Assembly: GCA_000091205.1 (NCBI GenBank)
Contig: AP006501.2
Length of the DNA stretch: 64,000 nt
Source: Cyanidioschyzon merolae
Lineage: Eukaryota
Strand: one strand, 5' to 3'
The notes below the pieces were generated by a model. That model worked only from the letters and a program-made list of their open reading frames with translations, did no database searches and had not been told where the DNA came from. A program made the position numbers and the translations under genes. Positions 1 to 56,100 of this stretch are shown here, piece after piece; positions within the stretch are counted from its first letter, which is position 1, and each line of letters opens with the position of its first letter.

Positions 1-1383
1 GCGAAGCACGACCAGTGCTTCGAGTCGCCCCGGACCGAGCACCCCTGGAAACTCGACTCGAAACCAACCGCAATCGCTGTCGGTAGCGGACTCCATCCAG
101 TAGAGGAGGACGCGCTCAGCATCACACGGACGAGTACAGGACGCTATCCACTCGCGCAGGAAACTTGGTTGTAGTTGCGCCCGACGCAGGTCGAACGACC
201 CGTGTCGACGACTCCATCCAGGCCAGAAACTGGTCTCGACAGCCAAGGACGCGTCGGTGACAAGCACTCGCGGCGGACACAGGTGCTGGAAACGCTTCCA
301 TGCCCAGATCGCTGCATTCCAGTGCGTCCATTGCTGGTCCAGGTGGCGTTGGTAGAGCCAGAACAACTGCGCACTGCGTTCATCACGAGTCTCTGGATGA
401 TAGAGTCGCGGGGCGGCCACCTGCATCGTCCACGCCGGTGCAAACAGCGCTACGCTCGCTCCGGTCGACCAGGCTACGTCGAACGCTTCAAAGGTGCGGA
501 ATCCACCGCCACCGGGCATCTTTCCCCGCCCGTACACATCAATGCCTACATAAATATCCTTCGCTGGTCGATTCAGCTGCGAGGCTCGCGCTACCGACTC
601 GAGCAGCCTTTGACCTGTTTCCCAGCGGTAATCCAGGTACATGGCGGAGGCGACCTGGAAAAATGCCTCGTTTCTCGCATTCAGCCTGGACTGATGGGCG
701 AGTTCACCATCCACCGTCAGGGCATCATACCAGATGACCGCTGCATGAGTACCCACTCGTTTCTGCAACTGCTCACGCAGCGTCGAGACAAAGATCAACA
801 CGCGCTGTATTGCAGGCGACAGAGGAGTGCTCTGGTTGCGCGAGCTTGGCGAAACCTTGGCATCGTCGCGAATTTCCACTTCAAAGTTCACCAACCAGCC
901 GTCAAAGCTAAATAGTTCAGCTAGACGAGCCAATCGATACGCGAGGAAGAAGATCGTGCGCAGATGGAGTAGCTGCTCCAGCAGGGCACCCCCGGCAGCG
1001 TGTTCGAGGACGCAGCTCCCAAAGCAGCGCACATGGTGCCGATGAGCGGCCTCGACCCAAGCCGGAGGCGGCATCGACACTCCATGGTGCGTGAAGTAGA
1101 CGAAATCGTCGATGAAAGACCACTCTCGAAAGTGGTACGCGAGCTCCGCCTCGGTTCGTGACCTCGTGCCATAGCACTCTGCGACGCTGTACGGTTGCGG
1201 AGCGTCGTGGCAGAGCAGTACGCGTTGGTGGCGCGTTGTCGACGGCTCTTGGAACGGAACTCGACTTTTTTGATCTAAATGTAAAGCACTAGATGATTCA
1301 TCCCAGTGTAAGAGCTCTTTAAGCGAGGAAAAGTACCATGAACCCGCTCCAGAGGTGGTTGAGGGCGTCTCCCCCATCCCATG
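1..1383 (-). CDS. Endo-beta-N-acetylglucosaminidase, GH85 family (partial; the C-terminus lies beyond the window start)
   Basis: Manual reverse-strand translation gives GH85 hallmarks: 'RVLLCHDA', 'FIDDFVYFTHHG', 'FDGWLVNFEVE' (catalytic Glu region), 'VIWYDALTVDGELAHQSRLNARNEAFF' and 'LDYRWETG'. The + ORF at 175..915 is antisense noise. The start is approximate; it may include an intron or an upstream Met. Confidence 0.6.
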
Positions 1384-1438
1384 AGCGCCAATATCGGCTG
1401 TGTACGATGCGAACGCGGAGCACCACAACACTGTACAG

Positions 1439-2497
1439 GATCATGAGCTGTACAGTGTAGGTAGGATTCCAAAGTGGTATGAGATATTCTTACTTGTCGT
1501 TAGACGTTGGATCATGAGCTGTACAGTGTAGGTAGGATTCCAAAGTGCTATGAGATATTCTTATTTGTCGTTCGACGTTGGATCATGGGCTGTACAGTGT
1601 AGGTCGGATTCCAAAGTGCAATGAGATATTCGTACTTGTCGTTCGACGTTGGATCATGAGCTGTACAGTGTAGGTCGGATTCCAAAGTGCAATGAGATAT
1701 TCTTACTTGTCGTTCGACGTTGGATCATGAGCTGTACAGTGTAGGTCGGATTCCAAAGTGCAATGAGATATTGTCACTTGTCGTTAGACGTTGGATCATG
1801 AGCTGTACAGTGTAGGTAGGATTCCAAAGTGCTATGAGATATTCTTACTTGTCGTTCGACGTTGGATCATGGGCTGTACAGTGTAGGTCGGATTCCAAAG
1901 TGCTATGAGATATTCTTACTTGTCGTTCGACGTTGGATCATGAGCTGTACAGTGTAGGTCGGATTCCAAAGTGCTATGAGATATTCTTACTTGTCGTTCG
2001 ACGTTGGATCATGAGCTGTACAGTGTAGGTCGGATTCCAAAGTGCAATGAGATATTGTCACTTGTCGTTAGACGTTGGATCATGAGCTGTACAGTGTAGG
2101 TAGGATTCCAAAGTGCTATGAGATATTCTTACTTGTCGTTCGACGTTGGATCATGAGCTGTACAGTGTAGGTCGGATTCCAAAGTGCTATGAGATATTCT
2201 TACTTGTCGTTCGACGTTGGATCATGAGCTGTACAGTGTAGGTCGGATTCCAAAGTGCTATGAGATATTCTTACTTGTCGTTCGACGTTGGATCATGAGC
2301 TGTACAGTGTAGGTCGGATTCCAAAGTGCTATGAGATATTCGTACTTGTCGTTCGACGTTGGATCATGAGCTGTACAGTGTAGGTCGGATTCCAAAGTGC
2401 AATGAGATATTCTTACTTGCCGTTCGACGTTGGATCATGAGCTGTACAGTGTAGGTCGGATTCCAAAGTGCTATGAGATATTCTTACTTGTCGTTAG
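1439..2497. repeat. 71-bp tandem satellite, about 15 units, in the ENGase upstream region and the DHFR-TS 3' region
   Basis: The unit 'gatcatgagctgtacagtgtaggt(a/c)ggattccaaagtg(c/g)(t/a)atgagatatt(c/g)ttacttgtcgtt(c/a)gacgttg' repeats with a 71-bp period (units begin at 1439, 1510, 1581 and so on). There are a few polymorphic positions. Confidence 0.9.
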
Positions 2498-3303
2498 GCT
2501 TCTTGCTTGCTTTCAATAGTCCTTGCGCGCTGCCAGGGTACGCTGGACTTTGGAACGAGATTCGACTTGGTTGCTGAGGCAGCTATGAGTAGCTCGAAAT
2601 GCAGCATAGCACAAGTTCCGTAGCTCATGGTAGCTTCTCTTTACACTGGCGACAGGGAGCCGGGTACGCGAGCTGAGCCAACATAGAATTAAAATCTTTA
2701 GTCGAGTTGTCGGCAGGAGACTTCCCGTTCTAGTAAGCAACTCGCAAGCTTGACGGAGACCCGTCGTTGCACGCTGTAGCTCAGCAGTTGTGCTCCCCTG
2801 CGTCAAGCGTGACGTCTGCAGCATGTGCCCTGGGTGCCCCTCGTACCCTTTCCTGGAATCGCTGCCACACAGCTGTTGTTCTCCCAGCGCCCGACTGCAA
2901 GCGTCTTTGCTCACGGCAAGTAGAGCCTGCAAGAAGCTTGAGGTCTCGGAAATGGGTCACAATTCCAAGTGCTACGCACTAGAGGCCGTGTTTATTCGCA
3001 CCTGAATATAGACAGCATCATAACGCGTTTGCTACTTGCATATACCAAGCCCGCACCAGAACCAAGCAGATACCTCGACCAAGGGCTTCGCTCGGCTACG
3101 TGTCGTGCTCAAGAACTCGCCAGTGAACTGCAACCGGTGCGTAGCGGCTCCATGCATCACCACTCTCGACTGGGCAGAGGGAAAAGAGGAAACGAGTTGC
3201 ATCGGGTTCAAGCGCTCGTCATTCTGCGAGCCCGGCCTCGAGAGGGCCCCCTGGATACCACTTTCGTTCGGGGTCAGCGTCGACACGTTGTCACCGATTG
3301 GCA

Positions 3304-16890: not shown

Positions 16891-19333
16891 CTATGCTTTG
16901 AATATCGCTGTTCTGAATATAAAAAACATGACATAAGATCGCAAGGTCCGAGCGACGCACGCAATTCTGTGCGTTAAGTTTATCTTGTAACAGGTGTTTT
17001 CGCGAGTCTGACCCCTCAATATCCATCGACGCGTTTGAGTGCACGACGACGACAGCGTGGATGTGTATACACCGACGTATAGACGCTTCTCAGTCTTTCT
17101 CGACTGGCCACCTACTACTGGGTTCAAGTTCTCCTTGTGCAATTTAGCCCTGTGAGGCTGCTTCTTAAAGTTGGTTCGCGTCAACCCCGGAGACCTGCTC
17201 TCCAGCATCGCACATCTCCTGATATCAAGAGCGGCGTTAAAGTCACGATACAAGAACTCTATGCGATTCTTGCCTCTGATGGAACGCACCAGTGCAGGTA
17301 GGCCTCGAACTCGTGCCCCGTTCATTGCCATTTGCTCTTGCGTCAGCGCTCCGTACTTTTCTGTATCCCCAGGGCTCCGCTGACACGTTTTCGTCTCGAC
17401 CCTCTGAAGTGTGCACCTCTGCTCATGGTGTCTATAGGACATTCGGAACTCATCTGTCGGTATTGTGACGAAACGCTTTGCGCATTCTTTATACGTTCTC
17501 GATGTTGGAGCGGGTGTACACCCGTTTTGGGTCATCTAGCGCCCTGCTCCGAATGCGACTGCGGACCTTTAACTCCTGTCCTCCTTCAAGGCGCTCAACG
17601 CATTGAAAAAGTCGGCAAATGCTCGCTGCTTCCCGCAGTGTGGATTCGTACGCGGACGAGCCCACCGGAGCTTGGTATACTCTCTTCACAGCGCCTCCCA
17701 ATGCGCTACGCGAACTTTCGTGAATTCCCGAAAACCTCGACTGTTCGCTCCGCGGCTCGTCGCCTCGCTCATAGCTACCAGGTGCTCTTTCATATCTGCA
17801 TTCCACGAATCGATTTGCTTCCTTGCATTCATGATTCCCCGATTCTCGATAGTATCTTGCTCTCGAGAACCTCTAAAAGTCGCATGTCTTTCTGACCTTA
17901 GTTACCGTCAGTACCATCTGCCGCACGCCTGGGTACTCCGATGGTTACGATATTCGTGTTGCCGGGGTCCGCGCCAACACCCATGTCGTTCTGCGTCGCA
18001 GGACCCGCCTCATTCTGTTCTTTATGTGCATTGCCGAGAGCGATATCGAGGACTGACCAGGACGATCCGCCTCCTTGAAGCGCCTAGAGTGTACATTTAT
18101 TGTTACCCCATCGGTTTCGATCATCCCCATGAATACAGTTTTCTTGCTCTTTTTGAGACGTTTGAAATCGAAGATGCTCTTCCAGTACGTCTCCCGGTTC
18201 TCGCCGTTGAACGCCTCCCTGCTTACATCGAGCTCCGGACTGATCTCCTTCATGATGCCGTGAAGGACTCTGGAGTTGATTGAGACAATGCGCGACTTGA
18301 TCTCGCATATCGGAACGAAGTTGAAGCGCTTCTCCAGAATCGCAGCCTGCCGTCTCTCGGACTCTTGAATTCTTCGCCTATCCAGCTCTTTTTCGGCCTT
18401 GCGCTCGATCTCTCGATTCAGAAACACAAGCTATCACAGGACTAGGGTAGTACATCTTTTACCATCTGTTTTCCATATCTGATACCGTTTCTGGTGGAAT
18501 CGCCAGCCCTAGAACCGCATGCTGCGTTTGAACAGCTCCACGGATCACGGAAGATTCATTCTCTCTCCTGCGTAATTTCTACTTGTCTACAAATTCGATC
18601 TCCTGCTCAAGCTGACTATCGTTCGTGATGCCATTGATGAAGTTCCATATCCCTTTGCGAGACAGGCACGAGTAAAGTGCAAAGATGGAGCGTATCGTGA
18701 AATGTTCGGGGATCATGATCACGTGGTTCCTCAGGTTCATTAGGTACTTCAACGCTTCGTAGGTGTAAACATTCGAGTTCCGCCCCCCAGATCGAGTGCC
18801 TTCGAAGCGGTACTTGGGGCATTTTTCGTGGAGGGCATCCACCAGCTCATTTCTCCTCGACGCTTGCCCTGTCCCAAGCATCACGTACCTTATAAAGGTC
18901 TTTTCAAAAAATTCTTCCGGAACCTCGACTGTTCTGATGTCTGCGACATCGCGATACATCTCCCGCACCATACGCATCAGTCCTAAAGAAGGCTTCCAAA
19001 TACTCATCCAGTAAGACGCGACACGGTTTCTGATGGATTTTCGCAACTTTTGCCTATAAGGATGCTGGGTACGGCGTAGGAGAAAGGCTATCATTACCAT
19101 CTCGTCGAACTGTCGTCTTTCGAGCAGCTTCTGACGTTGGGCCTCCCCCTTTTGCTTCTTCGTCTTTTCCCGTTGCTATGGTGTCGGAAATGTTTTTCGT
19201 TTCTTGCTCTGGCAGCCGGCGACACCGGCCATCCGGGGTCCTTCGGCTCCGTTGCCGTTAATTTCCTTTTTCTATTCTTGAAAGCGATCCCATTTCGACT
19301 GCGTCGGCTAAAATCGCGAAAAATCACTTGCAC
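16891..19333 (-). pseudogene. Fanzor/TnpB-like nuclease gene, copy A (frameshifted, with internal stops)
   Basis: ORF fragments 18579..19100, 17945..18427 and 16891..17535 are collinear with copy B. Matches include 'FLLRRTQHPYRQKLR' against '[15 protein letters not shown]', and '[30 protein letters not shown]' against '[30 protein letters not shown]'. The RuvC-I block reads '[11 protein letters not shown]' (about 17945-17990) and the C-terminal motif reads 'YRDFNAALDIRRC'. Frame 17536-17600 reads '[28 protein letters not shown]', with two stops where copy B has '[13 protein letters not shown]'. Confidence 0.65.
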
Positions 19334-19500
19334 AAACTCGCTTGAGGGTTGAAATACGATTCAGCCGAAAGACTATACTTTGCTGGGGGCTCAACGCAAA
19401 TACATGTTGTACGTTAGAGCAACCCGCTCAGATGAAGCATCGCGTTTCCCATCAACGGCGTGATACGCGTCGTCTCTCACGCATGCAAGATAGGGAAAAG
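16990..19500 (-). mobile_element. Fanzor-family element, copy A (degraded, about 2.5 kb)
   Basis: Reverse-complement nucleotide homology with copy B extends from about 29920 and 19478 at the left end to about 32705 and 16990 at the right end. Identity is about 70%, higher in motif blocks. No transposase ORF was recognised inside the element. Confidence 0.55.
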
Positions 19501-19599
19501 CGCGTATTGAGCGTGCTGTCTAGAACAAGGAACAGAAACGAACCACCAACTAGCAACGATGTACAAATTTCTTTCCCTCTTTACGATAAACGATAAAAG

Positions 19600-20170
19600 G
19601 GGGAAAGGTTTCCGCATTTTCGAAAGTTTCCTCTCTCGACGGAAGGTCCCGCGAGCCGAACGAGTCTGTCGAGCTTGCGCTCTGTGGGCACCCACCGTTG
19701 TCAGGTGCTGGGGCGAGACACGACCGCCTCCTCTGCCATAGAGTTCATTCTGGGAACAGCGGCGGTCATGCTGCAACTGGGCATCGCCCTGGTCGCAGTG
19801 GTCGCCTAGAATGTCGCTTCGCGCTGCCGCAGGCAGTAGGTCTATCAGCACAGTTTGCAGGCTCTCAGAACGATTATGAATACCGACTCCGTATCAGGTG
19901 CACCGTACATCGGTCCGATGCCCTATGCGATATAGCAGAGCTGTTCTCTATACCGTGCTGCATCGGATTCAGCGGTTTAGGCGCTACTGCGGGCGCTCAG
20001 GGCAGGCACTTGGTGCACGATAGATCCTATGAAATAACCAGTATATCCCAGAGGAAGAACAAGTAATGGAACTTGGAGGTAGGGTACAGTTTAATGGACG
20101 CGTTCCCGAACCCCATTATCCATCCCCACACTCTGGTACCCAGGTTCAATGGAAACATGGGGTCATCGGA
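19600..20170 (+). repeat. Repeat 'U', copy A (a 450-570 bp dispersed repeat flanking the Fanzor left end)
   Basis: Direct-orientation homology with 29440-29885. For example 'gtaatggaacttggaggtagggtacagtttaatggacgcgttcccgaacc...ggttcaatggaaacatgggg' matches 'gtaatctaacttggaggaaggtgcttcatcatggacgctttcccgaaagcc...ggtcaatggaaacgtcttg'. Confidence 0.5.
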
Positions 20171-29439: not shown

Positions 29440-29885
29440 CCACCGTGTGTCTCCACCCCAAAATTTCGACGATGCAATGCCCGTTTTCGAAAAAGTACCT
29501 GCCTAAGGTTCCACCTTCGAAGCGTCACCGTCTCGAAAACGCAAAAGCGCACGCTTCCGCAGTGCGCATTCTAGCGCGCGGCAAAGTGCGAAAGCAACAC
29601 GCATCCGGCGGCGGCGTGTCTACACGCATCCGGCGCTGGGATGGCGGGATCGCTGCGAGCACGCATGCTGCAAGCGTAGCGGCGCTATAGGCGCCGCTGC
29701 TGTCGCTATCGGCAAGCACTAGGCACACGCAATAGCACGTATGAAACGACCAGAATATCTGAGAAGAAGTACAGGTAATCTAACTTGGAGGAAGGTGCTT
29801 CATCATGGACGCTTTCCCGAAAGCCACTATCCTTTCCGAATTCTGGAATCCATGGTCAATGGAAACGTCTTGTTAATGAAAAAAA
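29440..29885 (+). repeat. Repeat 'U', copy B, immediately 5' of the Fanzor copy-B left end
   Basis: Direct-orientation homology with 19600-20170 (see copy A). Confidence 0.5.
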
Positions 29886-30220
29886 CGAATCGCGCTCGGT
29901 GGGCGCACCTGGGAGATCAGGCAGTCAACTGACGCGATGCGCGTGCCGTTGTTGAAGGGAAACTCATTTGGGATCACGAGCGTGTTGTTCAGCTGTAAAA
30001 TGTTGGATTTCCGTTCAGGTCGTAGCCAAGTAAAGTTTTTCAGTTTATTTTTGTTTCAAACTTCAAACACGTTTAGTCAAGTGTTTTTTCGCAGTATATA
30101 ACAGCAGGGCTCAAAGAGCGTTCTTTTTCAAAGAAACTAATAAAAGGAAAGTTATGAAAAACCAAGTCCACGATCCTGGAGCCCCAGTGTCGCCGGCTGC
30201 CAGAAAAAAAACAAAAAACA

Positions 30221-32530
30221 GTGCCGAGTCCAGAAGAAAAGGAAGAGAAGAAGGACCGAAAGGGGGAGGCCCTACGTCGAAGGCGGCACGAGAGACGACT
30301 GTACGACGAGGTGGTGGTGAAAACCTTTCTTCTTAAACTTATCCAGGATCCCTATAGGAAAAAGTTGCGAGGCGCTATCGAAAAACGTGTCGACACGTAC
30401 TCCAAGAATATTGTCAAGGCGTCGTCGGGACTGATGCATTTAGCGAGGGAGATGTACGAAGACGTCGCGCACATGGAAACAGTCGAGATTCCAGACGAGT
30501 TCTTCGACAAGACCTTTATTCAACACCTGATGCTTGGTACAGGGGAAACGCGGAGGGAAAATGAGCGGGTGCACGCCCTCCACGAAAACTTCGCGGGATT
30601 CCGCTTCGAGGGTAATCGATACAAGGGTGACTCGAATATGTACGGCTATGGGGCGATGAAGTACCTCACGAACCTGAAGAACCATTCGATAGTGAACCTC
30701 GAACGTTACATGATACGCGCCTTGTTTGCACTCTACCCGGGCATCTGTCCGAAAGGAATATCAGCGATTATCAATGGCATCACGCACGATCGCAAGCGTG
30801 AAGATGACATCGAATTTGTCGACAAGAAGGCATCAAAAGTGAGCACGAATGAAGCTTCTGTAATCCGTGCGGTTATACAAGAGCACCGTGCGGTACTGGG
30901 GCTGGTGAGTCCAACAGACAAGATATCAGAGTCGAAAAAGGATAAGGAAAGATACTATCGCCTCATCCTGTGCTATTTCGTGTTTCTGGACCGAGAGCTC
31001 GAACGCAAGTCGGAGATGAACCTGAGTGAAGAGACAAATGAAGAGTACGAGAGACGGAAGGCTGTCCTAATGGGGAAGCGCTTCAACGTGGTTCCAATGT
31101 CCAATATCAAGTCACATTATGTGACTACCGACTCCAGAGTCCTTTACGGCATCATGAGGGAGATCAGTCCCGAATTCAATGTTAGTGTGGAGGGCTTCAC
31201 CGGCGAAAACCGGGAGACGCACTGGAAGAATATCTTCGATTTCAAACGTCTCAAAACGAGCAAACAAAATGTATTCACCGGGATGATCGAAGCCGATGGA
31301 GTAGCCTTGTGTGTACACAATCGGCGATTGAAGAAAGTTCGTCCAACTCCGCCTTCGGCTGCGCCCGTCATGAAGGATGAAGAAAACAAAGAGGAGGATC
31401 CTGTGACGCAGGAGGAGCAGGATGACGACCTTGTCGTTGGCGTGACGAAGGATGAAGAAAACAAAGAGGAGGATCCTGTGACACAGGAGGAGCAGGATGA
31501 CGACCTTGTCGTTGGCGTGACGAAGGATGAAGAAAACAAAGAGGAGGATCCTGTGACACAGGACATGCATGATAACGATTTTGTCGTTGGCGTGACGAAG
31601 GATGAAGATGAGAAGGAGGCGAGTCCTGCGACGCAGGAGGTGGAGAATAACGACTTTATGGTTGACGCGACGAAGCATGAAGAAAAGAAGGAGGCGGATC
31701 CTGCGACCCACAAAGTGCAGGATAACGACTTTGTCGTTGGCGCGGACCCTGGGAATACGAATATCATAACCATCGCTGCTCCCAAGCGTGCGGAAGATGG
31801 TACTGATGGTAACTTACGTCAGAAAGACATGCGTCTGTTGAGGTTCTCGAGAGCGAGATACTATCGAGAATCGGGAATCATAAATGCAAGGAAGAAAATC
31901 GAGACTTGGAATTCAGGAATGAAAGAGCACCTGGAAGCTTCGAGCGAGGTGACGAGCCGAGGAGCGGACTTTGAAGCTTTTCGGAAATTCACGGAAGTTC
32001 GCGTTGCTCATTGGGAGGCGCCGTGAGAGGAGTATACCAAGTCCCGGTGGGCTCGTTTGCGAATGAATTTGTATTGTGGGAAGCATCGGGCATTCGCGAA
32101 TTTTTTCAATCAACTGAGTGCCCTGAAGGAGAATCAAAGTGAGAGGTTGGTAGTGACGTACGGAGCAGGGCGCTGGATGACCCAAAAAGGAACTACGCCA
32201 GCTCCAACGACGAGAACGTACAAGGAATGTGCAAGGCGTTTCGCTACGATGCCTGTAGATCGGTTCCGAACGTCCTATACACACCATGAACTGGGTTGTA
32301 CACTACAGAGAGTCGAGATGGAAAAGTGCCAACGGAGCTTTGAGGACATAGCAAAGTACGGACCGATGACGGGGGAGCAAATGGAAACAAGGGCGAACGT
32401 TCGTGGACTCCTTGCACTTGTTAGTACAGTCAATGGCAACGAAAAACGGATGGAGTATGTGAATCGTGACTTTAATGCCGCTCTCAATATAAGGAAATGT
32501 GCGGTGCTGGAGAAAAGACCTCCAGAGTAG
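30221..32530 (+). CDS. TnpB/Fanzor-like RuvC nuclease homolog (eukaryotic OMEGA-type); one in-frame TGA at 32024-32026 separates a 601-aa ORF (30221..32026) from an in-frame 157-aa ORF (32057..32530)
   Basis: The N-terminus is basic and NLS-like ('[20 protein letters not shown]'). RuvC-I-like '[17 protein letters not shown]' sits at 31727-31780, with the Asp codon at 31745-31747. The RuvC-II-position block is '[13 protein letters not shown]'. A Cys/His cluster 'YKEC...HHELGC...EKCQ' follows. RuvC-III hallmark '[15 protein letters not shown]' sits at 32456-32500, with the Asp codon at 32468-32470. Frame 2 is open from 30158. The track start is a GTG, and an ATG at 30154 lies in frame 1. Confidence 0.7.
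31372..31746 (+). repeat. 75-bp (25-codon) in-frame tandem repeat, 5 units, inside the Fanzor ORF immediately before RuvC-I
   Basis: The unit is 'gaaggatgaagaaaacaaagaggaggatcctgtgacgcaggaggagcaggatgacgaccttgtcgttggcgtgac'. Units 1 and 2 are near-identical, 3 to 5 are progressively diverged, and the last unit runs into 'DFVVGADPG'. Copy A has a single unit. Confidence 0.9.
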
Positions 32531-32705
32531 ACAAGACGGAACTTTATCGGACAACCTCTCAAAGTCGAACTATATGAGAAAAAGTTGGAAGACGTAGTGG
32601 GTGACCCGTCGAGAACGACTCGCAGCCGTCTGCACGTCAGTCGGACACGTCTTGTCCAAGGCGCAGTTGCTGCCACGACTGTACACAGCCGGAAGCTGTG
32701 ACTGA
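32440..32705 (+). ncRNA. Candidate omega-RNA / right-end scaffold region of the Fanzor element (inference only)
   Basis: The segment from the RuvC-III coding end to the right end is conserved at about 65-70% among copies A, B and C (core '...cgtcgagaa(c/a)gactc(g/a)(c/a)agccgtct(g/a)(c/t)acgtc(a/g)gt...'). By analogy with TnpB/Fanzor loci, the guide scaffold overlaps the 3' end of the ORF. Confidence 0.25.
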
Positions 32706-32723
32706 GATTACGCGAAAGCGCTC

Positions 32724-33428
32724 ATGGCGTCGACTGGATCTGCCCCTATTGAACACGCTCGGGAACCGTGTCCTGATCGGATTCTAGACGATGTCGGAGG
32801 TGCGTTTTGCATGGGCGCCATCGGTGGTAGCATCTGGCACTTTGTAAAGGGCATGCGCAACTCCCCAAGGGGCCAGCGACTCCTGGGCAGCATCGACGCC
32901 GTAAAGCTTCGCGCACCGACGCTCGGAGGCAGTTTTGCCGTCTGGGGCGGTCTTTTTTCCACTTTTGACTGTGCTATTGGCGGTCTACGCGGAGTCGAAG
33001 ACCCGTATAACGCCATCGCAAGCGGAGCGATCACCGGGGGTGTGCTCTCTGCGCGGAGCGGCCTCCGAGCGTCGGCACGCTCGGCGCTGATCGGTGGCGT
33101 CTTGCTAGCGATCATCGAAGGGCTCGGAATTATGTTGACCAGAATGACTGCGGAGATGGGCCCAACTCCGGAAGAGGTCGAGCGGATGCGGCGAGAGTTC
33201 GCGGAACAGCAGCATCGGCAGCGACTGGAAGGCGGTGCCGGTACCCGTACCGCCGACGGCTTTGCGGCTCCCGCTGATGAGCGTCTGGGCATGGGCGCGA
33301 ATGACGTCGTTTTGACAGAAAATTCTGGCGTTCGGGTCGGAGGCAGTGCGGACCCAAGCAGTCACAGTGGCCAGAACGAGCCTGAACGCCGCGGCGGTGG
33401 CTTTCTGCGTTCCCTTTTTGGTAGCTAG
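32724..33428 (+). CDS. TIM17: Mitochondrial inner-membrane translocase subunit Tim17
   Basis: '[89 protein letters not shown]' matches the Tim17 GxxxG-rich family signature. A Gly/Pro-rich C-terminal tail follows. Confidence 0.9.
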
Positions 33429-42960: not shown

Positions 42961-45900
42961 AAAAATATAGGGAGGGCGTCCGAATGGTCAGTCCTTGGTA
43001 TTTCAGACGGACATGTTAGCAGAGACTTTGAGCGCGGTTGAAAGACGCGGGCACTGCAATGGATCGCTTTCAAGACGAGCTGATGTGCTGCTGGGAAGCT
43101 GACAACGCTGGGTCTCGGCGAACAGCAAGCATCCAGGACTGTTCGTCTGGTAGGTAGACTCAGTGGTGACGAAAATTGGAGCACCATGCTGTCGCATATA
43201 TTGCCCAAGAAGATCGCTTTCTTTGTCTAGATACATCGCTGAGGCCTCGCGTACGATCTGCAGCTCCATACTTTTCCAGTGCCAGTCTCGAAGCGAAGAT
43301 GCCGCCGCTTGGCTCTTAGCCCCTGATCTTCTTTCATCGGATCTACTCAGTGTTTCAGCAAAATGCCCACACTGAGTATTCAACGATGATCTCGATAGGT
43401 CGCTCAAAAAAAGGCCGATGGACTGTATGGGAGCATGATAACTTTCCGGATGGTGATCGAGGCCTTGGAGTTGCGACGCGTAAAGTGCTATGACGCCTCG
43501 TTGCCGTTGGAATCACACCAAAGCAAGCGTCTCGGTTGACGACGGCCTTGCCCTCGGACGTTCGGTCAGCATTCCGTACACGATTTCGTGCATCTGTTTC
43601 AGTTTCATGCTTTCCTTGTATAGAGGTCCCATGGTACGTCGATGCTTGTGGTGTGTGTCTGTCGTCCTGAACGTATGCATGGGAATCGTACAACATCGAA
43701 TTCTGCACTCATCGCATGCTTTCGTCGAAGCAGCAAGAGTGCGACCTCTGCGCGCTCCAGCAAGTCCAGCATCGTAGGCTACAATGACACGACAAGACTC
43801 GGAGGTCATTTCCTTTCCCCATGCAATGAAAAACTCGGCAGAGGCATGCTTCTCGTGTTCTGAAAACTGCAGCTCGTAGCTACTTGAGCACTGTCTCGTG
43901 TAGGCCAGCCATGTGTATCGTCCGCAAGAGCCACTCGGATGTTCATATCCTCACTGGAAGAACCGTAGAAAGCATCTTCCTCTGCCGGACCTGGTACTCA
44001 GGACGTCAAGATAGGTCCTGACGCCGCTATTCCGCTTGTTGGTATGCCTGCTGCCTACGATCCTGCCCAGCTCTCGATGATTACGATCCCTGGGAAAATC
44101 AGATCATATTGCTTGTTCTGCATCGAGCATCAGTGGCGAGGTCATACGAGGGTTTCATCGAAGCATTTCAGAAGCGACTGGACAGCTGGTAGCCCTGCGT
44201 TCACAGCTCCTTCAAAGCGTTGCTTGACGACGTGCGTCCAAGCAAAGGCGGGGTAAGCAAGCTATGCTGGGCGACGATGCGACGCGAGCTTTCGTTGCGT
44301 CCTGCATCCCACATGTTGCGAGATTCTGCGCGTTACTATGTTTCTCATACAGAAACCTGTACAACAGTTTCAGGTTGATATGAACGCTTCGACGGTTCCT
44401 GCTTCCTGTCCCTCGCCGTCCTCTTTTCGGGAAGTTTAGTCGCTTGGTTGTTCTACGGTATCCTCTGCTGTTCAAATTCTCAGCGGAACGGAATAGCTAT
44501 GGTCGCTGTCCTCTGTATCCGTTGTTTACCGCGGACTCAGACTTACCGGATGGATGATGGAACCAAAAATTGCCTTCTCTATGTACAAAACTCCTCTCCC
44601 GCAAGTGCCTCTTCGGCACCCTCTCGTTCATGAACCGAGAGGCGAAAGAGCAGTTTAGGGCTGGTCTAGGTGCTGAGCGCCGCGTCGAAAATCTTGGGTT
44701 TCACAGATGCGAAGGACTCGTCTACTGATCCGTGAGCTTAGAAGCGGCGTTTTACAACGTCGTAGGAGACGCCTTGGACAGGATTGAAGCCAAGAGAATA
44801 GGCTGCCGCGAAGAGCTGCTCGACACCAGTGCCAGCTGCGCATACCTTGACCGCCTTTGGGTGCTGAAAAGCGACATTTTCTCAGGGCGGAACCGAAGAA
44901 TGTAGGAAATGAAAACCCCGAAATGCTTCGAAGAAGCGTGAGGTGCTCATCGATCCCAAGCGTTTGACGACTCGTGGGTGACTAGACAAAAGCATCGTTG
45001 ATGGGCCTGATATCCTTGGAATGCTCAATCATCTCTTCTTTGCGATCAGATGATTTTTCTTCTCTTTAAGGGTCCATAAACAAGCCTACCATTTCTCCCG
45101 AATGAATTTTCATGGAGTGAGACGAACACTCGGTTCTCCTGGAATAAGCGTTCCCATTTCAATACGAAAAATCAATGGAGTGATTAGGATCGTAAGGCGG
45201 TCTGTCGTAAAAGCGCGCTTTTTCTATCTGTGCCCATCCGAGTATCTTCATCGCTGGTTGTATCAAATGTGAAGAAACGTCACAGCCTGTGGATTCGCCG
45301 GTAGTATATCATGGACAACGTATGGGGTGCAATGGATTGCTGAGGATAACGTCGTTTCCATACCATATGATATGTACTGTTATGGGTGCAAGGCGTCCAG
45401 CATAAGGTCGATGAGAAGGTGCGTTCGTGCACCTGCTGTCGGTAGAATGACTCACTTTTAGCTGTAAAGCCTTTTGTCGCCAGCTATCAGTCAATACATC
45501 AAGTGTATCCACGACGTTCTTCTAATCTACAGAATCAACTTCTTTTCTTGGACATTTGCGTGAAAAACAATTCACGTCAACAATAACGTGTTGATACAGG
45601 AGGTCAAGCGCTCGCTGCGCTGACGATCATGCCAGGTACTTGCCCAGCAACGCTGCTCAGAGTCGTAGCGTTGCACGTTCTGCAGCGACGGGACGCGGGT
45701 ATTGATTCCATGGACGACGTGATAGTCTGTTAACGCACTTGGGCATTTCGTGTGTGTCCTTACACCAGAACCACCCTGTTCGTGCTTGCTATACCTTCAC
45801 AGCGGTGTGAGCGGTTGGCGGACCTTTGGCAGCTTCGTTCATAACTCGGAGGCGCTGTGCGTACGGCGTGCTCACCGGTCTGTTTACTCTGGGTGGCGAC

Positions 45901-55559: not shown

Positions 55560-56100
55560 GTTTACACGTCGATAAAACGGCTGTGAACCGAGATTAGGTT
55601 TGGGATATCGCGGAGGTCGCTAGCCTGTGTAAGATTGTCCAATATCGTCGAGGACGCTATTGCTAGATTTGAACCTAAAGATATATATACATGCCAACTC
55701 ACAGACGCCTCCGAGTTTCTTACAACAGGCTCCTGCTGTCCGCTTCAGCTTTTCCGTGTACACCTCGAGCTGGAGAGGGTGTCCAGCAATGTTCGCTCGC
55801 ATCACATCCATGGGTCTCGTCTCCAGCACCGCATATCGTCTGATATTCATGGCGGCGTTCAAGTTGCGGTTCACCATTTCCGTTCGTTTATAGTTTCCGA
55901 TGGGACTCATCAATGCGAGGATTCCGAGAACTCGCGCCCCCAGTGCCTTTTGCTGCTCTGTATGGTTCCCGCGCTTTTCTATCGCCGGAGCGCACCGCTG
56001 CCTTATCTCCATCTCGGCCTTCTGAAGTGTACATCCTGGTTCATCCCTCGGATTTTCTATTTCCTCAAATGACCCCGATTGTCTAAGACCTTTGGTGATG
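55560..56100 (-). mobile_element. Fanzor-family element, copy C (3' fragment only, pseudogene)
   Basis: ORF 55620..56012 encodes 'CTLQKAEMEIRQRC...MVNRNLNAAMNIRRYAVLETRP...HPLQLEVYTEKLK', collinear with the copy-B C-terminus and with its post-stop extension ('QPLKVELYEKKLE'). Upstream homology is lost within about 100 bp. Confidence 0.55.

Follow-up and report, generated by a model that had tools for sequence, protein, structure and literature searches.

Positions 29688 to ~32721 of the window, the 64,000-nucleotide stretch of DNA analysed here, very probably hold a degenerate, non-functional copy of CMe-1A, a Fanzor1-encoding transposable element family of Cyanidioschyzon merolae. The find is not new as such: the CMe-1A family was already published in 2013, together with its consensus and its assignment to Fanzor1 (PMC3627910), and the novelty of a Fanzor-type system implied in the initial annotation of this DNA has to be given up. 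Bao and Jurka (2013, Mob DNA 4:12; PMC3627910) described CMe-1A as an element of ~3 kb without TIRs, present in ~150 copies, and themselves classed CMe-1 as Fanzor1. The consensus DNA (3,169 bp) and protein from the supplement of that paper were used as the reference. In blastn, the window was 84.0% identical to the consensus at consensus positions 648-2193 and 87.4% identical at 2122-3143; the copy is colinear with the consensus, and its divergence is in line with the ~80% similarity typical of the family. At the protein level, the window copy and the CMe-1 consensus showed 79.6% identity across 712 aligned residues, with the motifs in the same order. The presence of further paralogous copies was confirmed by searches of the window.

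The element had been placed at 29900-32705, which is roughly right for its core (29889 to ~32721) but leaves out an inverted 5' module that also belongs to it. The following parts were delimited:

29688-29873, minus strand: fragment of an inverted, TE-N2_CMe-like 5' module (consensus 6-189, 81% identity, blastn).
29889-32721, plus strand: CMe-1A core (consensus 648-3143 equals window 29891-32692, a confident match at 84-87% identity).
29889-29912, plus strand: left-end boundary with a small palindrome (GCGCTC-GGT-GGGCGC, read from the sequence).

The 5' module meets the left end of the core via a short A-run; at the other end, the final ~30 nt of the core are decayed, and the right end is approximate, with an uncertainty of ~8 nt. 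The consensus has ~635 bp at its 5' end in common with TE-N2_CMe, in forward orientation, whereas the window copy carries only positions 6-189, inverted. An inverted 5' module was found upstream of the core at many independent loci, and as this arrangement recurs as a subfamily structure, the inverted, truncated module is a family variant and gives no ground for excluding the copy from CMe-1A. The left boundary recurs across copies as ATCGCGCTC(A/G)GTGAGCGCACC; a randomly 5'-truncated element was rejected because the identical boundary is found in many independent copies. Elsewhere in the family, the left-end palindrome reads GCGCTC..GAGCGC or GCGCG..CGCGC. The CMe-1A element has no TIRs and encodes no transposase gene, and no sizeable coding ORF other than that of the nuclease was found inside it, in agreement with the earlier statement that it holds no DDE, HUH or serine-recombinase ORF. 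A link to Replitrons and their HUH enzymes was also considered, and was dropped, since none are reported from red algae in the Replitron paper.

The copy occupies the intergenic region of a divergent gene pair, a protein-kinase gene and TIM17, both of them bona fide C. merolae nuclear genes. The TIM17 ORF matches XP_005539054.1 / BAM83018.1 of C. merolae 10D exactly, which places the copy in the C. merolae nuclear genome. One scenario, compatible with a dead CMe-1A copy, is co-option of the relic, with its 3' part serving as promoter or 5'UTR of TIM17. The annotated TIM17 ATG (32724) is located ~3 bp past the right end of the element on the same strand, and the arrangement is kept in L005, an independently sequenced environmental ortholog of the window locus. 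Against this, TIM17 cluster representatives of related origin have a length of 205 aa, not 234 aa, so that the true start may be a downstream Met and the juxtaposition with the element less tight; moreover, chance placement of transposable elements in short intergenic gaps is common in compact genomes. We consider co-option of the relic improbable.

The reading that the CMe-1A copy is dead was examined on its reading frame, which displays the following features:

30154-30156, plus strand: ATG at the start-codon position of the CMe-1 consensus protein; in this copy it is not in frame with the main ORF.
30202-30219, plus strand: A-run region with a net gain of 1 nt over the consensus, a frameshift (alignment and three-frame translation).
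30221-32701, plus strand: Fanzor1 (CMe-1) pseudogene frame, 826 codons including two internal stops.
31372-31742, plus strand: tandem array of a 75-bp unit, with 4.9 copies here (four extra in-frame units) and one in the consensus.
32024-32026, plus strand: premature stop TGA, in the consensus TGG (Trp).
32528-32530, plus strand: second premature stop TAG, in the consensus TTG (Leu).
32657-32659, plus strand: native stop position, CAA here and TAG in the consensus.

Translation of the ORF showed the plus-strand frame 30221-32530 to be open save for the TGA at 32024-32026, as had been described. The frame is nevertheless not split by this single TGA only: the TAG at its end, which had been taken for the natural terminus, is a second premature stop, beyond which homology with other copies continues up to a TGA at 32699-32701. 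The frame runs on to that point as a result of the change of the native stop to CAA, and the consensus ATG is out of frame because of the net +1 nt in the A-runs. The 75-bp unit encodes an acidic 25-aa repeat in the linker just before RuvC-I, and this repeat-bearing linker is disordered in the structure model described below. In comparison to the consensus, the copy has the same genome and motif order and likewise no TIRs or transposase gene, whereas its 5' module is inverted and truncated instead of forward, its 75-bp units number about five instead of one, and it has acquired a frameshift, two premature stops and a Glu-to-Arg change and has lost the native stop and the terminal hairpin. With an out-of-frame start, two in-frame stops, the catalytic Glu replaced by Arg and the terminal hairpin lost, the copy cannot act as a Fanzor nuclease; it is a molecular fossil.

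A Fanzor gene that is near-intact and potentially functional, with a single stop that is read through or is a sequencing error, would also display a long frame and preserved RuvC-I and RuvC-III aspartates, and some family members do keep long ORFs, such as the homolog P0001 at 752 aa. The copy carries, however, at least five independent disabling or structural lesions, and the Arg replaces a Glu that is invariant in 80/80 diverse homologs. The same lesions are present in L005, and since this locus was independently sequenced they are not assembly errors. The reading as a near-intact gene, put forward in the initial annotation, is accordingly extremely unlikely. The fossil has also become fixed in an environmental population (L005). 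Of 55 distinct related copies in the family, just 4 have an open frame of at least 700 aa.

The active-site positions of the CMe-1A fossil are as follows:

31745-31747, plus strand: RuvC-I catalytic Asp (GAC), in GADPG, of the Fanzor-type DPG; aligns to SpuFz1 D383.
32138-32176, plus strand: strand at the canonical RuvC-II position, with no Glu; aligns to SpuFz1 FTVVMGDWS.
32261-32263, plus strand: site of the repositioned catalytic Glu (Ealt; SpuFz1 E541), CGG (Arg) here.
32279-32329, plus strand: counterpart of the TNB zinc ribbon's first half, with no CxxC motif.
32468-32470, plus strand: RuvC-III catalytic Asp (GAC); aligns to SpuFz1 NRD (D606).

All of the motifs named earlier (GADPG, the strand at the RuvC-II position, THHELGC...C and the RuvC-III motif) were recovered where they had been reported; the two nominated Asp codons are the RuvC-I and RuvC-III aspartates, and the strand lacking the canonical Glu had been correctly chosen. 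This Glu is absent from the canonical RuvC-II strand in all Fanzors (PMC10711439). What had escaped notice is the repositioned catalytic Glu, in DEFRTS, together with its loss here. SpuFz1 D383/N385/E541/D606 align to an invariant D, an invariant E and a near-invariant D of the CMe-1 family. In 80 diverse homologs, the D and G of DPG are invariant and its P is at least 90% conserved; the repositioned Glu, shortly before the [TS][TS]/zinc-finger position, is E in all 80; and in the RD of RuvC-III the R is invariant and the D found in 79. Among the family copies, this Glu position is E in 35/41, with R only at the window locus and its environmental ortholog. The Glu was lost secondarily, in a pseudogene, and its replacement by Arg is no reason to remove the copy from the Fanzor1 lineage.

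A single-sequence search of the conceptual window protein against Pfam, NCBIfam and PDB returned nothing relevant. The Pfam families suggested beforehand fared no better: OrfB_IS605 (PF01385) gave no match, and the Zn-ribbon/TNB models matched relatives only, below threshold (PF07282: 11.5-18.5 bits, with the gathering threshold at 26.3 bits). A profile built from close paralogs had no match in PDB, and AlphaFold run on a shallow paralog alignment yielded a pLDDT of 33, a model that was discarded. Conversely, an HMM of the 80 diverse homologs, searched against 177,635 PDB sequences, matched only PpFz1 (5e-21), SpuFz1 (2.7e-14) and GtFz1 (1.5e-10). The Fanzor1 fold, with its WED/REC/RuvC/TNB architecture, was tested on P0001, which is intact and 70% identical to the window protein. 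Its confident AF2 model (pLDDT 82.3, pTM 0.81) gave seven significant matches in Foldseek, all of them Fanzor1 structures (E ~1e-16, TMt 0.50-0.74), while Cas12 structures appeared only at E>0.02. Homologs also carry a weak precomputed match to PF26935, 'DUF8286', which was set aside, there being no trace of it in the literature. Taken together, the PDB profile search, the fold search and the identity with the CMe-1A consensus bear out the assignment to Fanzor1, the eukaryotic TnpB/OMEGA lineage; the relation to characterised Fanzors is indeed only distant, with 13-15% identity to the solved ones. Chance motifs, or membership of another family (e.g. a Cas12-like gene, or contamination by a prokaryotic TnpB/IS605), would agree with the empty single-sequence searches and with the match of relatives, though only sub-threshold, to a Cas12f1-like TNB model, but are practically out of the question given the specificity of the profile and fold searches for Fanzor1, the flanking C. 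merolae nuclear genes, and the DPG at RuvC-I and repositioned Glu, the two signatures that part Fanzors from TnpB (PMC10711439).

The comparison with SpuFz1 of Spizellomyces punctatus (PDB 8GKH, 9CEU-9CEZ), proposed at the outset, was positive: the P0001 model matches it with a Foldseek E of ~5e-16 and a TM of 0.74 normalised to SpuFz, and the two have the same DPG / repositioned Glu / RD active-site layout, at a sequence identity of only ~15%. SpuFz1 has a zinc finger of CCCC type, and its terminal inverted repeats measure 30 nt and come with a TA duplication, whereas the CMe-1 clade has neither CxxC pairs nor TIRs; the acidic repeat linker before RuvC-I is, in turn, a feature of CMe-1. The best profile match, PpFz1 of Parasitella parasitica (PDB 9CF0-3), covers the REC-like region, RuvC-I and the C-terminus, and its DEFRTS is near-verbatim that of the CMe-1 family; unlike CMe-1, it has a large RuvC insertion (the FRI domain) and CxxC motifs. 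In GtFz1 of Guillardia theta (PDB 9CER-T), Asn replaces the third Asp. The RuvC nuclease core is also that of prokaryotic TnpB of IS200/IS605 and IS607 (e.g. ISDra2 TnpB), and the TnpB-only, TIR-less organisation of CMe-1A, with subterminal hairpin-forming ends, is reminiscent of the IS200/IS605 architecture. TnpB differs in having a C4 zinc ribbon, D-hydrophobic-G at RuvC-I and a canonical Glu that precedes the zinc finger by ~50 residues, and CMe-1 has no significant sequence match to the TnpB Pfam models.

The Cys/His cluster previously noted at the place of the TnpB zinc finger is not a C4 arrangement; it consists of two Cys and two His, with no CxxC (THHELGC-x9-C). Two CxxC motifs were found in 0/80 clade members, and one CxxC in 1/80. 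Judged from these sequences, the whole Fanzor1 subclade containing CMe-1, with 1,459 representatives at 50% identity, is devoid of the canonical C4 zinc ribbon, a modest addition to what was known. A C4 zinc finger between [TS][TS] and RD is part of the Fanzor1 motif of Bao and Jurka 2013 (PMC3627910), and Yoon et al. 2023 (PMC10711439) attribute a zinc finger to "many", not all, Fanzors. As the clade in this respect is unlike all characterised Fanzor1 and TnpB proteins, its biochemistry could differ.

Beyond the coding region, one further segment was delimited:

32657-32721, plus strand: stop position to right end, putative omega-RNA scaffold region (per-copy folding and comparison across copies).

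RNAalifold on the raw MAFFT alignment of the 3' regions gave no meaningful consensus fold (-2.2 kcal/mol), as indels scramble the last 100 nt of the alignment; it was replaced by per-copy folding and a right-anchored ungapped alignment. The right end of the family is sharp, with a stop-to-end interval of ~60 nt. A conserved terminal hairpin was present in 32/32 copies whose end can be recognised; it is strand-asymmetric (-7.8 kcal/mol sense, -4.5 kcal/mol antisense) and displays compensatory changes in the right-anchored alignment. The window copy retains part of the stop-proximal stem and has lost the terminal hairpin. Thermodynamic z-scores of the whole 3' segment were weak (mean -0.85, per-copy folding), and Rfam had no match anywhere in the element. 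Instead of RNA structure, the terminal hairpins could represent transposition signals at the DNA level. That the CMe-1A ends are sharply defined across copies and can form hairpins is, again, a modest addition to knowledge. A semi-conserved TT(T/G)G(G/T)TG was also observed after the right end of family copies.

By homology to SpuFz1, GtFz1 and PpFz1, the CMe-1 protein (~734 aa) would be a Fanzor1 RuvC nuclease, in which the Asp of DPG, the repositioned Glu of DEFRTS and the Asp of NRD would form a two-metal active site, and which would cut matching DNA next to a TAM. Activity and omega-RNA have been demonstrated experimentally for SpuFz1, whereas in CMe-1 the cleavage, the omega-RNA and the TAM are predicted by homology only; a literature search found no publication on CMe-1 activity. 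To our knowledge, no partner transposase has been reported for the compact C. merolae genome, and no TnpA partner is known in red algae. It is conceivable, if very unlikely, that CMe-1A represents a zinc-ribbon-less Fanzor1 lineage with hairpin ends and neither TIRs nor transposase, spread either by its own Fanzor/omega-RNA nuclease (RNA-guided cleavage followed by homology-directed copying) or by an undiscovered ssDNA (HUH-type) enzyme. Were this true, either route would make CMe-1A a self-sufficient or an IS200/IS605-like OMEGA element in a eukaryote, and the recurrent modular 5' junctions and the motif after the right end would reflect targeted insertion.

The C4 zinc ribbon is usually treated as a family signature, and the CMe-1 clade points to a large Fanzor1 subclade that does without it. 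This clade is missed by single-sequence Pfam and PDB searches and becomes visible only through a family profile or a deep-MSA structure model, a blind spot relevant to anyone screening eukaryotic genomes for OMEGA nucleases. The sharper definition of the CMe-1A ends (left boundary palindrome, modular 5' modules and right hairpin) could help in looking for an omega-RNA in C. merolae, an extremophile amenable to genetics.

The frame at 30221-32530 (+) translated as described in the initial annotation, with a single internal stop (TGA, 32024-32026), and all of the peptides quoted there were found in the translation. The element region differs from its surroundings in composition (GC 0.49 vs ~0.58, with a strong purine skew). 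The motifs lie as follows:

31745-31747 (+), Asp codon of GADPG
32138-32176 (+), 13-residue peptide of the Glu-less RuvC-II strand
32279-32329 (+), THHELGC...C
32468-32470 (+), Asp codon of a 10-residue peptide at RuvC-III

Single-sequence searches of Pfam, NCBIfam and the PDB matched nothing. A large protein search yielded 28 close paralogs (~70% identical), every one of them of JGI origin, and their only label was a weak 'DUF8286'; a profile built on them had no PDB match, and AlphaFold run with this shallow alignment gave a failed model (pLDDT 33). An exhaustive HMM search led to a large family (1,459 representatives after clustering at 50%) in which lengths of 580-700 aa are frequent; half of the sampled representatives displayed sub-threshold matches, at an equivalent C-terminal position, to the Cas12f1-like TNB (former OrfB_Zn_ribbon) model. 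An alignment (A3) was made of the intact homolog P0001 and 79 diverse members, each 27-39% identical to it, and in this alignment the Asp of 'G.DPG', the Glu in 'DEFRT[TS]' and 'R-D..NAA.N' were invariant or nearly so. When the A3 profile was compared with all PDB sequences, exactly three proteins matched, all of them Fanzor1: those of Parasitella parasitica (E=5e-21), Spizellomyces punctatus (E=2.7e-14) and Guillardia theta (E=1.5e-10).

AlphaFold on the deep alignment produced a confident model (pLDDT 82.3, pTM 0.81), with disorder confined to the acidic linker. Foldseek against the PDB returned seven significant matches, all Fanzor1 cryo-EM structures (E 5e-16 to 9e-13; TM up to 0.74, normalised to SpuFz), and Cas12 structures ranked after these as marginal matches. 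The active site of the S. punctatus protein, SpuFz1, consists of D383, N385, E541 and D606 (PMC10432273; PMC11423790); counted through the HMMER alignment, D383/N385 fall on the 'DPG' strand of the family, E541 on the Glu of 'DEFRTS' and D606 on 'NRD'. Fanzor differs from TnpB in two signatures: RuvC-I carries DPG, and the Glu has moved to a site immediately before the zinc-finger position (Yoon et al., PMC10711439). The CMe-1 family displays both. The family is homologous to Fanzor1 and shares its fold, and the D/E/D triad is conserved. The initial annotation had recognised the family correctly from the raw sequence, as well as the two aspartates and the Glu-less RuvC-II strand.

One Fanzor1 family is listed for C. 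merolae in the founding paper of the Fanzor family (Bao and Jurka, 2013, PMC3627910). This family, CMe-1A, comprises about 150 copies, each ~80% identical to a ~3 kb consensus, and some retain intact ORFs; it is without TIRs, its TSDs were not determined, its TE class is given as unknown, and a separate short element, TE-N2_CMe, matches its initial 635 bp at 95% identity (PMC3627910). The 3,169-bp consensus and the 734-aa CMe-1 protein are provided in the supplementary files (PMC3627910). The window matches this consensus at 84.0% over 648-2193 and 87.4% over 2122-3143, and the conceptual protein shares 79.6% of 712 aligned residues with CMe-1; the element is therefore a copy of an already known, named family. 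No subsequent publication on the C. merolae Fanzor turned up in a literature search.

The state of the window copy was judged by alignment to the CMe-1A consensus, which revealed seven differences:

30202-30219, frameshift (net +1 nt in A-runs), the consensus ATG (30154) being out of frame with the ORF
31372-31742, array of 4.9 units with four extra in-frame 75-bp repeat units (one unit in the consensus)
32024, TGG to TGA
32261-32263, GAG to CGG, catalytic Glu to Arg
32528, TTG to TAG, with homology continuing clearly beyond
32657-32659, native TAG to CAA, the frame running to TGA 32699-32701
right end, decay of the last ~30 nt, terminal hairpin lost

With its frameshift, altered stops, Glu-to-Arg change and missing hairpin, the copy had been described too generously as 'near-intact'. 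The TAG at 32528, earlier taken as the natural end of the ORF, is not one, and the real position of the catalytic Glu, along with its loss (CGG), had been overlooked. The lesions are real and fixed, because an environmental contig orthologous to the window locus (L005) has the same locus, flanks, stop and Arg; the window copy is inactive on every count. Among related copies, just 4 of 55 distinct ones are open over at least 700 aa, and the catalytic D, E and D were found in 39/39, 35/41 and 41/50, respectively. P0001, the best-preserved homolog, likewise has the consensus ATG in a different frame from its long ORF (locus L001, 5881-6110), the shift lying at the A-run that is affected in the window copy; slippage may recur at this homopolymer. 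Copies differ in how many units they have of the acidic 25-aa repeat that precedes RuvC-I (31372-31742; homologs P0001, P0006 and P0011): the consensus has one, the window copy five and P0011 more. The repeat is predicted to be disordered.

Many independent copies start at consensus ~638-690, exactly as the window copy does, with a sharp common left start, 'ATCGCGCTC(A/G)GTGAGCGCACC', that includes a small palindrome (window 29889; consensus ~646). The related loci (L001-L081) differ in what lies upstream of this boundary, where at least four distinct modules recur: a forward TE-N2, an inverted TE-N2-like module with an A-run, and two further repeats. The inverted module is present in the window and at about ten other loci, and in the window it is reduced to consensus 6-189 (29688-29873). 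Random truncation of the window copy was rejected, since the same boundary and inverted module recur in independent copies across loci; the copy belongs instead to an inverted-module subfamily. The recurrent boundary and its varied modules suggest either that the elements are modular composites or that they insert into repeated sequences as preferred targets.

At the right end, copies could be aligned as far as '...GAA(A/C)GGCG', followed by a semi-conserved TT(T/G)G(G/T)TG and then by unrelated flanks; the first ~7 nt past '...GGCG' included TTTGGTG, TTGATGGTG, TTTGTTGT and GTGGTGGTG (L001-L081). The true terminus could lie ~8 nt further out, or this could reflect a target-site preference. 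About 56-65 nt separate the stop codon from the element end. Per-copy folding placed a stem of at least 5 bp right after the stop in 35/41 copies, with no strand asymmetry, and a terminal hairpin in 32/32 (sense -7.8 kcal/mol vs -4.5 for both antisense and shuffles). In a right-anchored alignment of 15 variants, 87% of the hairpin cells were paired, 4 of 10 pairs carried double substitutions, and the covariation score was 0.193 vs 0.129 in shuffles (reached by 2/500) and at most 0.07 in slid registers. RNAalifold on the raw 3' alignment was uninformative, z-scores for the whole 3' segment were weak, and Rfam had no match in the element. On this limited evidence, the terminal hairpin is consistent with a structured RNA (or single strand) at the expected end of an omega-RNA.

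By analogy with SpuFz1, GtFz1 and PpFz1, intact CMe-1 proteins would be omega-RNA-guided, TAM-dependent DNA endonucleases, and their putative guide RNA would come from the 3' end of the element. The element encodes no transposase gene and lacks TIRs, and no Replitron or HUH candidates in red algae are reported in the Replitron paper.

A C4 zinc finger is part of the Bao-Jurka motif (PMC3627910), and according to Yoon et al. (PMC10711439) the finger is carried by 'many' members. Whereas SpuFz1 has a CCCC zinc site (PMC10432273), the CMe-1 clade is without paired CxxC: between the Glu and the RD of A3, two CxxC were found in 0/80 sequences and a single one in 1/80. Columns matching the SpuFz1 cysteines hold mostly H/Y, D/T and C/Y, a conserved fourth ligand being absent, and the equivalent part of the model is of lower confidence (pLDDT 57-81). 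As observed in A3 (window 32279-32460), the CxxC...CxxC zinc ribbon is missing throughout the Fanzor1 subclade to which CMe-1 belongs (1,459 representatives at 50% identity in a global protein library); no explicit mention of a zinc-less Fanzor1 clade was found in the Fanzor literature surveyed.

Three relatives of the frame lie within the window:

17071-20168 (-), second CMe-1A copy, full-length 'long' type (consensus 1-3092, 79.6% identity), with a forward TE-N2-like module and an ORF broken by several frameshifts
55702-56044 (-), 3'-terminal CMe-1A fragment (consensus 2737-3083, 70% identity), with 'NRNLNAA' as its RuvC-III motif
43404-44094 (-), heavily decayed, very divergent Fanzor1 relic (family-profile domain E 4.6e-11)

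The relic is 27-32% identical in amino acids to all family members and comes from another Fanzor1 lineage that is far more divergent; Bao and Jurka (PMC3627910) give only a single Fanzor family for C. merolae.

The ORF directly downstream of the element (32724-33425) is an exact match to C. merolae 10D TIM17 (BAM83018.1 / XP_005539054.1). The right end of the element (~32721) lies ~3 bp before the annotated TIM17 ATG (32724) on the same strand (32692-32726), so that the sequence upstream of TIM17 derives from a TE; L005 displays the same arrangement. Since related cluster members are 205 aa long, not 234 aa, the true TIM17 start may be a downstream Met.

JGI metagenomes contain Cyanidioschyzon-like nuclear contigs of up to 160 kb (Ga0078972, Ga0080006, Ga0207433, Ga0123519, Ga0209012, JGI20133J14441, JGI24721J*) with 351 CMe-1A-related stretches, orthologs of the window locus among them. 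These contigs are useful for comparing filled with empty sites of the family.
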